From the NCBI GenBank assembly GCA_963667045.1, contig OY762934.1, positions 904,510-936,509 on the forward strand: 32,000 bases of DNA. Direction: 5' to 3'. The notes beneath the pieces are model-generated. The model was not told the DNA's origin. It searched no databases and worked only from the letters and a program-made list of their open reading frames with translations. A program made the position numbers and the translations under genes. The stretch is from an uncultured Cohaesibacter sp. GTDB taxonomy: Bacteria; Pseudomonadota; Alphaproteobacteria; Rhizobiales; Cohaesibacteraceae. How positions within the stretch are numbered: the first letter of the stretch is position 1; every line of letters starts with the position of its first letter. Below, piece by piece: positions 20,578-22,242 of the stretch.

Positions 20578-21180
20578 TCAAAGGCCGCGGCGCCCGCGGC
20601 CAACCACCCGTGCCAGTCGGGTTGCGATCTGGTTTTCCGACTTTGAAAACGAGCTGACATCCGGGGTGCTGATATTCATGACGATGTTGACCGCCTGTCC
20701 GCCACCACCCGGCATGGCAACGCCGAGCCTGCCGTCGGCACCGCGCTGAAGCGGCATGATCGCTTCGGCCCCAGCCTCTCCCATGAGTCCGGTGCCTGAG
20801 CCTGTCGGGAAGAGCGAAGGCGTCGAAACCACACCACCCTTGGCAAAAGGGGTCAGCCCCCCCAAAAGCGAGGCGAGCCCACCACTGCTGGAGGAAGTGA
20901 GCGAAGAGAAGAGCCCTGATGCAAGACTTGAGACAGAACCTGACAGGAGTTGCCTGAGCGGCTCCAATCCGGCACTGAGAGCACTTTTGCTAAGATCCTG
21001 AGCCAGACGGCTGAAGACATCCTCAAGGCTCTTGCCCCGAACAATGGCATCTTCAAATGCATCGGCCACCTTGTCGCCGAGCCTGTCGGCCTGTTTCTGA
21101 GCCGCCGTCAGGTCTTTGGTGAAGGACTTCATGTCCGCTTCGACCTTGACGACGGCCGTTTCCACGACTTCATCAGCCAT
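20578..21180 (-). CDS. g11: short GTA tail tape measure protein (RcGTA g11 type)
   Basis: 200 aa. Conserved FAKGGV...GLMGEAGAEAIMPLQRGADGRLGV block. The short length is characteristic of GTAs as opposed to siphophages. Confidence 0.88.
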   Translation of the reverse strand: MADEVVETAVVKVEADMKSFTKDLTAAQKQADRLGDKVADAFEDAIVRGKSLEDVFSRLAQDLSKSALSAGLEPLRQLLSGSVSSLASGLFSSLTSSSSGGLASLLGGLTPFAKGGVVSTPSLFPTGSGTGLMGEAGAEAIMPLQRGADGRLGVAMPGGGGQAVNIVMNISTPDVSSFSKSENQIATRLARVVGRGRRGL

Positions 21181-21246
21181 GAGTGTTCCCTTTCCTCTTG
21201 CCTTTCGCAGGCAAGAAAAGCATTCGGTTTTAGGCTGGACGCCTGA

Positions 21247-21474
21247 CTAGTCAGGAAATGCTGCGCAGAGCAGATCCAGGTCCAGGCGACTGAGGTTGTT
21301 GGCCCGCTGCCCTAGGAGGGAACCGGCCATCAGGATTTCCGTAGGCGTGGCCGCCCAGATTGTTTGTGGCGTCCAGCCGAGACGCTGGCTTGCCAGTGCA
21401 AACAGAAAAAGCCAGGGGAACTTGGTAGCACTCGAGGCCGATCCTCCAGAGGTGGACCGGCCTATGTGGGGTTT
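21247..21474 (-). CDS. g10.1: tail assembly chaperone extension (RcGTA g10.1 / rcc01693-family), -1 frame relative to g10, probably made as a g10-g10.1 frameshift fusion
   Basis: My own translation of the -1 frame: ...KFPWLFLFALASQRLGWTPQTIWAATPTEILMAGSLLGQRANNLSRLDLDLLCAAFPD*. The FPW...LGxxPxxxWxxTPxEL pattern is that of the g10.1 family. The frame is open from 21504 but has no ATG/GTG/TTG before the conserved block; the only ATG is 26 codons from the end. Absent from the supplied ORF track. Confidence 0.6.
   Translation of the reverse strand, partial: KPHIGRSTSGGSASSATKFPWLFLFALASQRLGWTPQTIWAATPTEILMAGSLLGQRANNLSRLDLDLLCAAFPD
21436..21474 (-). promoter_or_regulatory. candidate -1 programmed ribosomal frameshift signal (slippery A-AAC-CCC + 5-nt spacer + hairpin)
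   Basis: The g10 zero frame reads CCA AAC CCC ACA TAG, so the heptamer AAACCCC (21474-21468) is in X-XXY-YYZ register. A 5-nt spacer ACAUA follows, then a 27-nt hairpin (21462-21436): GGCCGGUCC-A-CC-UCU-GG-A-GGAUCGGCC, 11 bp with one G-U pair and one mismatch. Confidence 0.55.
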
Positions 21475-21818
21475 GGCAAGGATTGCCCTCCAGTTGCAGC
21501 ATCTTCAATATCCGGGCTGAAAGTCTCCCTGAGCAGATCGACCAGTGCCGTAGTCAGAGTGGCGGCTCCCCCCTTGCAACGCATGGCGGCGGCTTCAGCG
21601 TCCGAGATCTCAGCACCACCGGCCCGCAAGGCGGCACCGAGGATCTTGATGAGATCACCACTCCGGACCCTGCCGCCTGAAAAGCGTTCGGCAAGAGATC
21701 CGATATTGTCCAATTCCATGCTGTCTTCCAGTTCGGCGAGCGCTGCAAGGGTCAGGCACAACCTGTAGGTCTGATCGTCAAGGCAGATAGAAATTTCGCC
21801 GCGTCGTCTGTTTACCAT
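21462..21818 (-). CDS. g10: GTA tail assembly chaperone (RcGTA g10 type)
   Basis: 118 aa. MVNRRRGEISICLDDQTYRLCLTLAALAELE is typical of the 'gene transfer agent family protein' that follows the tube gene. Confidence 0.85.
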   Translation of the reverse strand: MVNRRRGEISICLDDQTYRLCLTLAALAELEDSMELDNIGSLAERFSGGRVRSGDLIKILGAALRAGGAEISDAEAAAMRCKGGAATLTTALVDLLRETFSPDIEDAATGGQSLPNPT

Positions 21819-21828
21819 CAGATTGCCC

Positions 21829-22242
21829 TCAGGCCGCAGTGAAGGTCAGGGCGCCTGCGGATTCGAGCGCCATTTCGAAGGACAGCTCGTTGTCATGCTG
21901 GCCGGAATATTCCAGCGCAGTGATCTGGAACGCCCCCTCAAGTGTACCGAAGTTGGGAATGACGACTTGCCAGCCGGCAATGGTGCCATCAAAGAACAGC
22001 GACCGGATACGCTCATCGCTTTCGCCATCCTTGAAAAGGCCGCTGCCAGACAAGCTGGCGCGGCGACTGCCCGCCCCTTCCAGCAGTTCGCGCCATCGTC
22101 CTGCGGATTCGGAATGGCTGATGTCAACGCTCTCGGCGTTGAAGGAAAGCGAACGGGCGCGCAAACCGGCGACCGTGATGAAGGCATCATCGCCCTCATT
22201 GCGCACCTTGAGCAGAAGGTCTTTGCCTTTCTGTGCAGTCAT
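21829..22242 (-). CDS. g9: major tail (tube) protein, TP901-1 family (RcGTA g9 type)
   Basis: 137 aa. KGKDLLLKV...FITVAGLRARSLSFNAESVDISH pattern of the TP901-1 major tail family. Confidence 0.92.
   Translation of the reverse strand: MTAQKGKDLLLKVRNEGDDAFITVAGLRARSLSFNAESVDISHSESAGRWRELLEGAGSRRASLSGSGLFKDGESDERIRSLFFDGTIAGWQVVIPNFGTLEGAFQITALEYSGQHDNELSFEMALESAGALTFTAA

Follow-up and report, generated by a model that had tools for sequence, protein, structure and literature searches.

A reading frame that is conserved across many genomes and carries no start codon raises the question of how its product is made. One such frame is g10.1, the second tail assembly chaperone region in the gene transfer agent (GTA) cluster of an uncultured Cohaesibacter sp. 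The window analysed here is a stretch of 32,000 nt from contig OY762934.1 (positions 904,510 to 936,509, forward strand), and all coordinates below are positions within it. An earlier note on this DNA had proposed that g10.1 depends on an obligate -1 frameshift producing a fusion of the lambda G/GT kind. This proposal is supported by comparative evidence, namely the heptamer, the spacer, the hairpin and the lack of start codons. Judged from sequence comparison, g10 and g10.1 are very probably one recoded gene, in which a programmed -1 frameshift yields a g10-g10.1 fusion.

A start-less chaperone frame in an RcGTA-type cluster

Profile matches outline a complete RcGTA-type head-tail cluster on the minus strand, running from about 29270 down to 14577. 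The genes follow the order terminase, portal, protease, capsid, connector, tail completion, tail tube g9, g10 and g10.1, continuing with the tape measure g11, DUF2460, a Gp84_N/BR0599 protein, NlpC/P60 and g15 (GTA_TIM + Rcc01698_C). Its assignment to the RcGTA type is based on genes: collinear g2-g15 homologues, a g15 of the GTA_TIM/Rcc01698 type and a short tape measure. The pair of open reading frames under study occupies the position typical of G/GT, between the tail tube gene g9 and the tape measure gene g11 (Table 1).

Both halves of the pair fall in tail assembly chaperone families, PF11836 for g10 and PF09550 for the -1 frame. The g10.1 block also matches the rcc01693 family TIGR02216, under the cutoff of that family. 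The top matches of an AlphaFold model of g10 (pLDDT 75) are predicted viral tail assembly chaperones (TMq 0.66-0.67, E 4e-4), and a comparison of the model with solved structures gave no match. A PHROGs search returned one family, to which no function is assigned there.

The 3' end of g10 reads CCA AAC CCC ACA TAG, with the TAG at 21464-21462. The -1 frame is open from 21504 to a TAG at 21249-21247 and reads RCCNWRAILAKPHIGRSTSGGSASSATKFPWLF...FPD. No ATG, GTG or TTG occurs in this frame between 21504 and the conserved block, and translation thus bears out the earlier description of an open, start-less g10.1. A run of 28 codons without a start codon is by itself unremarkable. The fusion of 190 aa that the note had predicted from slippage is likewise borne out, as 117 + 73 aa, and the proposed CDS is complement(join(21247..21468,21468..21818)). 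The predicted junction is ...GGQSLPNPHIGR..., the fusion would read ...SLPNPHIGRS...FPW...FPD, and the tryptic peptide predicted to span the junction is ETFSPDIEDAATGGQSLPNPHIGR.

Table 1. Features of the g10/g10.1 locus, with positions in the window
Feature	Position	Strand	Basis or content
g9, major tail tube protein, upstream neighbour	21829..22242	-	PF06199 Phage_tail_2, E 1.5e-46
g10, zero-frame tail assembly chaperone (G-like), 118 aa	21462..21818	-	PF11836 Phage_TAC_11, E 1.2e-25
Shine-Dalgarno-like GGAGGG inside g10, 11 nt upstream of the heptamer	21486..21491	-	Sequence
Putative slippery heptamer A_AAC_CCC	21468..21474	-	Exact X_XXY_YYZ register; AAC and CCC are zero-frame codons
Spacer ACAUA, 5 nt, heptamer to hairpin	21463..21467	-	Overlaps last sense codon and stop of g10
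Stem-loop, 12 stem positions (11 pairs and one A.A mismatch), UCU loop	21436..21462	-	GGCCGGUCCACC-UCU-GGAGGAUCGGCC
Predicted -1 part of the fusion, 73 codons and TAG	21247..21468	-	Linker HIGRSTSGGSASSATK, then g10.1/T-like domain
g10.1 conserved block FPW...FPD, FPW at 21420	21250..21420	-	PF09550 Phage_TAC_6, E 1.6e-12
g11, short tape measure, downstream neighbour	20578..21180	-	NF058675 RcGTA_tape, E 8e-51, 172.8 bits, under the 220-bit cutoff

Conservation of the -1 frame in related loci

Loci for comparison were collected from reference genomes (6), metagenomes (80), IMG/VR (80), plasmid or phage records (5) and the surroundings of chosen g10 homologues (11). The metagenome and IMG/VR loci are the best 80 matches per collection to the g10 alignment used as query, which skews the set towards Hyphomicrobiales, the relatives of the query. 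A single g10 protein searched against reference genome contigs found 6 loci, and the g10.1 peptide alone, used as query in a word-indexed protein search, found one match. In each locus g10 and g10.1 were located by HMMs, and near-identical junctions were collapsed into 137 junction clusters. For Rhodobacterales, the reading of the junction covers one locus, that of Paracoccus (L168).

g10.1 is present in 163 of 168 loci, the other 5 ending at a contig edge, and in 161 of these 163 its frame is -1 relative to g10. In the two exceptions the junction is unchanged, FPW being in the -1 frame, and another frame change follows inside g10.1.

This constancy bears on the possibility that g10.1 is a decaying pseudogene that has lost its start, with the heptamer and the hairpin either arising by chance or kept for the g10 C-terminus or for mRNA stability. 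The missing start codon, the fact that g10.1 is left uncalled in several related contigs and the chance-level frequency of the heptamer sequence in the window would all fit such decay. Against it, both the window and 163 loci, many of them start-less, have an intact, open PF09550 block, and F, P, W, E and FPD of g10.1 are nearly invariant in an alignment of 116 sequences. Linker lengths vary widely and the -1 frame is always kept, and close relatives at 71-96% g10 identity retain the whole arrangement. Decay is therefore a very improbable account of the locus.

A sequencing or assembly indel, or slippage of RNA polymerase instead of the ribosome, has a still smaller probability. A single-base error could split one open reading frame, and the site does contain short A3 and C4 runs. 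However, the same arrangement recurs in independent assemblies, from at least 15 genomes of the Cohaesibacter clade and at about 160 other loci, and every locus has a zero-frame stop. Transcriptional slippage as a rule takes homopolymer runs far longer than these. Conservation of the intact block across independent assemblies makes both the pseudogene and the artefact readings very improbable.

An in-register slippery heptamer at the end of g10

The programmed frameshift, by comparison, would require a slippery site in the correct register. The earlier note had placed such a heptamer two codons before the stop, and the sequence confirms its position and register. AAACCCY occurs 6 times in the whole window against 6.5 expected. 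The heptamer alone is not rare, and it is significant because of where it lies, the register it is in and its retention in related loci. An in-register X_XXY_YYZ is found in the last 72 nt of g10 in 105 of the 137 junction clusters; for the remaining two registers the counts are 8 and 6. The rate in the body of g10 is 0.0016 per codon, corresponding to about 0.04 expected per 24 codons. Among the 161 loci the heptamer types are A_AAC_CCN (65), C_CCT_TTN (42) and G_GGA_AAG/C (10). A_AAC_CCC is not among the best-characterised bacterial heptamers. Within the Cohaesibacter clade, 13 of 15 related loci carry A_AAC_CCC; of the remaining two, one carries A_AAC_CCT and lacks a hairpin, and the second carries A_AAC_CCG and a different hairpin.

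The base that precedes AAC-CCN is A in 56 of 63 cases, compared with a third-position A frequency of 9% in g10. The codon to which it belongs encodes P, A, Q, E, S, T, I, V or K. As the base is kept while the amino acid varies, selection acts here at the nucleotide level. At the protein level, the g10 alignment retains a C-terminal Asn-Pro after a linker of variable length, and the zero-frame residues past this Asn-Pro number from none to 8 and are unrelated to one another. A conserved Asn-Pro followed by a variable tail is the pattern expected at a frameshift site.

In loci of the C_CCT_TTC class the -1 frame reads P-F-P-W straight across the heptamer, inside g10, and for this reason the conserved N-terminus of g10.1 is reachable by slippage only. 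The Phe codon of FPW was compared as TTT or TTC, and the counts of 27 of 30 inside g10 and 59 of 101 downstream make this test only moderately discriminating. Loci of this class also conserve an internal ATG overlapping the stop (UGAUG), which could add a truncated product; the window has no such Met.

Upstream Shine-Dalgarno-like element

A GGAGGG element inside g10, which was missing from the earlier account of the signal, lies upstream of the heptamer. Shine-Dalgarno (SD)-like elements were defined in the comparison as 8-mers complementary to the 16S rRNA tail with a duplex energy of -6 kcal/mol or lower. An SD-like 8-mer starting 20-14 nt before the heptamer is present in 41 of 56 A_AAC_CCN clusters, 35 of 37 C_CCT_TTC clusters and 6 of 10 G_GGA_AAN clusters, and most loci have the element at a distance of 10-14 nt upstream from the heptamer. 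In the class of loci with ATGA or GTGA, the SD peak falls 14-11 nt before the start codon, as in ordinary initiation. The GGAGGG of the window fits the heptamer-class pattern. We infer that it acts as an upstream frameshift stimulator resembling that of dnaX.

Downstream spacer and covarying hairpin

The 5-nt spacer and 11-bp hairpin at 21462-21436 that the earlier note had described are both borne out, the stem comprising 11 pairs plus one A.A mismatch. The hairpin has an MFE of -20.5 kcal/mol (43 nt) and a z score of -3.2, and 1 of 200 shuffled sequences folds as well. An alignment of g10/g10.1 junctions, suggested in that note as a check on the heptamer, the spacing and covarying pairs, found all three conserved in the Cohaesibacter clade. 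It comprised 12 mutually related sequences from this clade (the window and 11 relatives), and the spacer measures 5 nt in 12 of 12. The hairpin and its 5-nt spacer persist even in sequences whose g10 stop now falls in the loop or past the hairpin (L088, L173, L174, L177, L178).

RNAalifold, applied to the 12 sequences, predicts the same 12-pair helix. The helix cells are paired in 92% of cases, versus 15-47% with the partner column slid. Four pairs have changed on both sides, and the observed covariation score was not attained in any of 500 shuffles. The exchanges are G-C/G-U/A-U and C-G/G-C, pair 6 occurring as G-C, G-U and A-U, and the bottom five pairs are invariant. In the Cohaesibacter clade only, the stem-loop therefore appears to be maintained by compensatory changes. 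In the -1 frame the stem arms specify GRS and GSA, and constraint on the protein could account for some of the conservation.

Outside the Cohaesibacter clade, folding of the 45 nt downstream of the heptamer revealed no significant local hairpin (median z > 0). With longer folding windows, a conserved GCCGCAGCAG that begins 5 nt past the heptamer in 23 other A_AAC_CCN loci can pair with CTGCTGCGGC 50 nt downstream, a stretch that corresponds to the codons for LLRL of g10.1, and the candidate long-range helix has 10 bp. Such a helix, for which the covariation support is weak, would possibly explain the nucleotide conservation in an otherwise variable linker. Folding of the C_CCT_TTC loci gave no consensus structure downstream.

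Start codons and re-initiation as an alternative route

In 86 of 161 loci, no ATG, GTG or TTG lies in the -1 frame within 60 nt upstream of FPW, and 74 of these 86 have a heptamer. Of the 119 loci with a heptamer, 9 have a start-stop overlap of the form ATGA or GTGA; of the 42 loci lacking a heptamer, 17 do. Loci from Parvibaculum (L003-L006) and Paracoccus denitrificans (L168) have ATGA or GTGA with a normally spaced SD and no heptamer. The g10/g10.1 family thus appears to use two alternative solutions, frameshift or start-stop overlap. The earlier note had named a conventional g10.1 start without the heptamer as one finding that would count against it; this combination is absent in the Cohaesibacter clade, in which no relative has a convincing g10.1 start codon, and is seen in Parvibaculum and Paracoccus.

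Coupled initiation is the most serious competitor of the frameshift. According to this explanation, g10.1 is a separate protein, and terminating ribosomes re-initiate at a non-canonical codon, for example the ATA at 21465-21463 (ATAG) or a near-cognate codon near FPW. The Parvibaculum and Paracoccus loci demonstrate that coupled initiation is real in the family, and in the window ATA overlaps TAG. In addition, the public annotation of a close relative (L007) starts g10.1 from ATC, two codons before FPW, giving a protein MRFPW from the DNA ATC AGG TTT. A coupled separate gene would have a canonical start at the g10 stop and an SD at initiation distance; the window has ATA only, and its GGAGGG lies 20 nt from this ATA, too far for initiation. 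The ATA is not conserved, being replaced by TTA or CTA in L001, L002, L007, L175 and L176, and the ATC of L007 is ACC in the window. Re-initiation would also leave the in-register heptamer, the A before the heptamer, the constant spacer and the covarying hairpin unexplained. It is accordingly considered improbable for the Cohaesibacter locus, yet less so than decay or artefact.

Another candidate start is the TTG that overlaps TGA (CCC TTG A) in many A_AAC_CCT-TGA loci. It was rejected as the main start because loci ending in TAG or TAA keep the heptamer without a TTG, and because the SD-like element lies about 15 nt or more from the TTG.

Proposed mechanism of the frameshift

For the preferred programmed -1 frameshift, the following sequence of events is proposed. 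Most ribosomes would read g10 to the TAG and release the 118-aa chaperone. A fraction would pause with tRNA-Asn and tRNA-Pro on AAC-CCC, presumably owing to the GC-rich hairpin 5 nt downstream and to pairing of GGAGGG with the 16S rRNA tail. Both tRNAs would then slip back by one base, tRNA-Asn from AAC to AAA and tRNA-Pro from CCC to CCC, and position 21468 would be read twice. Translation in the -1 frame would subsequently give the 190-aa g10-g10.1 fusion. By analogy with lambda G/GT, the g10 part may coat the tape measure g11 and the g10.1 part may recruit the tail tube g9, and the rate of frameshifting would set the ratio of the two products. We infer the slippage itself, as well as its efficiency and the roles of both products.

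Relation to lambda G/GT, dnaX and RcGTA

The lambda G/GT system, reportedly treated by Xu, Hendrix and Duda in 2004 together with the conserved -1 frameshift of dsDNA-phage tail chaperone genes, is the closest model for this locus. As in lambda, overlapping reading frames lie between the major tail and tape measure genes, the second one being in the -1 frame and start-less. An X_XXY_YYZ heptamer occurs near the zero-frame stop, and the predicted products are a short G-like protein and a C-terminally extended fusion. The sequence features that define G/GT, namely the position, the -1 overlap, the missing start, the in-register heptamer and the tail assembly chaperone (TAC) families, are all present here. 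There are also differences. The heptamer is A_AAC_CCC here and G_GGA_AAG in lambda, although lambda's own type G_GGA_AAG/C occurs in about 10 of the related loci. The TAC families are PF11836 and PF09550, and the genes belong to a chromosomal gene transfer agent, not to a phage. Conservation here extends to an SD-like element upstream and a hairpin downstream, whereas to our knowledge the lambda G/GT frameshift needs neither. Finally, some related lineages have exchanged the frameshift for a separately initiated T-domain gene, unlike lambda.

The three-part architecture of the signal resembles the -1 frameshift signal of E. coli dnaX (tau/gamma), which is said to have been described by Larsen et al. 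in 1994. The frameshift enhancer of dnaX is an internal SD-like sequence about 10-14 nt upstream of the slippery site, a distance that agrees with that of the SD-like elements in the g10 loci. Both signals combine an upstream SD-like sequence, a heptamer suited to tandem slippage and a stable stem-loop 5-6 nt downstream. In contrast, the dnaX heptamer is A_AAA_AAG and its frameshift product is the shorter one, whereas the shift predicted here lengthens the protein. The Cohaesibacter sequences are best explained by a frameshift of the lambda G/GT type whose three-part signal is dnaX-like.

The frameshift mechanism is itself already well known for phage tail chaperones and would be expected by phage biologists. 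A conserved -1 frameshift within genes for the tail assembly chaperones of dsDNA phages is described in two publications (PMC3711429, PMC10885494). What appears to be new is the frameshift signal in GTA g10/g10.1, which is practically unannotated in databases. The RcGTA counterparts, g10 (rcc01692) and g10.1 (rcc01693), belong to the same protein families and occupy the same position in the head-tail cluster (PMC11409702, PMC5669443). They are listed separately, sometimes with the label conserved hypothetical protein and sometimes under the names 'tail chaperone 1' and 'tail chaperone 2' (PMC5026251, PMC5669443, PMC9765227, PMC11409702). The searchable GTA literature treats them as two genes with no mention of a g10/g10.1 frameshift, and an earlier remark in the subscription literature is possible. 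In the Rhodobacterales locus compared here, that of Paracoccus, g10.1 has its own ATG and a good SD.

Spread and evolution of the proposed frameshift signal

The signal extends well beyond Cohaesibacter. A_AAC_CCT junctions were found in Brucella/Ochrobactrum and Aminobacter through cluster look-ups and in Shinella by reading the sequence. Hyphomicrobium and related MAGs have C_CCT_TTC junctions, and one Hyphomicrobiales MAG has a junction with G_GGA_AAG. The frameshift signal is therefore widespread in Hyphomicrobiales. Since some related lineages make g10.1 from its own ATG or GTG, it also appears that free g10.1 can function and that the covalent fusion is not universally required. The earlier suggestion that the frameshift revises how the GTA chaperone is made holds as far as this lineage and many other Hyphomicrobiales are concerned; Parvibaculum and Paracoccus start g10.1 conventionally.

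The chances are about even that frameshifting is the prevailing route to g10.1 across Hyphomicrobiales GTAs, including those of Brucella/Ochrobactrum, and that Paracoccus and Parvibaculum switched to a separate, coupled g10.1. Such a route may draw on three interchangeable heptamers (A_AAC_CCN, C_CCT_TTC and G_GGA_AAG/C) and a shared SD-like stimulator. If this is true, the covalent G-T link of tail chaperones would be evolutionarily dispensable, and the picture of two separate chaperone genes, as drawn in GTA papers and genome annotation, would be wrong for most of these genomes. GTAs are host-controlled domesticated phages, and retained recoding would show that the stoichiometric logic of G:GT outlived domestication. 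The efficiency of frameshifting would be a possible tuning point for tail production. The presence of frameshifted and split versions within one orthologous family would also provide a natural experiment on the tethering of T to G.

Annotation of g10.1 in current databases

In a large protein collection, the best 120 of 1,934 PF09550 proteins are all stand-alone, with lengths of 62-96 aa, and carry the labels 'rcc01693 family protein' or 'phage tail assembly chaperone'. No fusion of about 190 aa is found among 78 g10-type matches. A CDS written with join() would mend the annotation in many alphaproteobacterial genomes, where the gene is often missing or is given a wrong start, be it an internal Met or a non-canonical codon. 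The interval between g10 and g11 holds no called gene in 6 of 10 Cohaesibacter-like contigs, and in two records named 'Bacteriophage sp.' the annotated CDS begins downstream of FPW.

Apparent alternative modes of g10.1 expression

The g10.1 chaperone domain is apparently produced in different ways in different lineages: some would make it by translational coupling as a separate protein, others by frameshifting as a fusion. At the orthologous loci of Parvibaculum (L003-L006) and Paracoccus denitrificans (L168), the start codon of g10.1 overlaps the g10 stop as ATGA or GTGA, with an SD sequence at initiation distance, and no heptamer is present at any of these five loci.

Another arrangement is found at about 40 loci with the heptamer C_CCT_TTC (L008, L045, L049, L072 and others), where the junction reads GGC CCT TTC CCT GGG ACG ACG TGA TGG. 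This junction is dual-coding, because the codons for the conserved F-P-W with which g10.1 begins span the heptamer itself, within the end of g10. A conserved in-frame ATG also overlaps the g10 stop (UGAUG), so these loci might make both the fusion product and a free, truncated form of g10.1. No downstream consensus structure was found in this class.

Two isolate-derived IMG/VR loci, L142 and L146, have the usual A_AAC_CCT-TGA junction with F-P-W in the -1 frame, after which the remainder of the g10.1 block runs on in another frame. A second frame change is one possible explanation of this switch; others are a pseudogene and a sequencing error.

Predicted RNA structures around g10.1

Among the A_AAC_CCN loci outside the Cohaesibacter clade (alignment A4), GCCGCAGCAG begins 5 nt past the heptamer (+5 to +15) and is conserved amid an otherwise variable linker, as seen at L010, L011, L015, L032, L039, L056 and others. 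Its complement, CTGCTGCGGC, lies 50 nt downstream (+66 to +75) and forms the codons of the g10.1 LLRL motif. RNAalifold predicts a 10-bp long-range helix between the two segments, with double changes at only 2 pairs in this alignment.

In the window, a separate hairpin lies within the 66 nt that separate the g10.1 stop from the start of g11, and its 3' arm extends into the purine-rich stretch preceding the ATG of g11. For the 75-nt segment as a whole, z is -1.7. The hairpin might influence how g11 is translated or how stable the mRNA is.

Features of the g10.1 region and of related loci
Feature	Location	Positions	Strand
11-bp hairpin, UUUUCUUGCCU-GCGAA-AGGCAAGAGGAA	window	21193-21219	minus
g10.1 block, as compared with phrog_7493	window	21250-21474	minus
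g11	window	20578-21180	minus
Protein P0001	L007	2001-2198	
Usual junction, then g10.1 block in another frame	L142, L146	about 1533-1750	

Family matches and annotation

The PHROG profile phrog_7493, which has 178 positions and is of unknown function, is matched by the g10.1 block at positions 103-130 (E 2.7e-5); the proteins of this phage family may be chaperones that are already fused. The tape measure protein g11 of the window scores 172.8 bits against NF058675 (RcGTA_tape), under the curated cutoff of 220, and PGAP would therefore not use that model to name it. In the close relative L007, the public annotation of g10.1 (protein P0001) begins MRFPW..., where the DNA reads ATC AGG TTT; the gene caller chose ATC as the start because a canonical one is absent.
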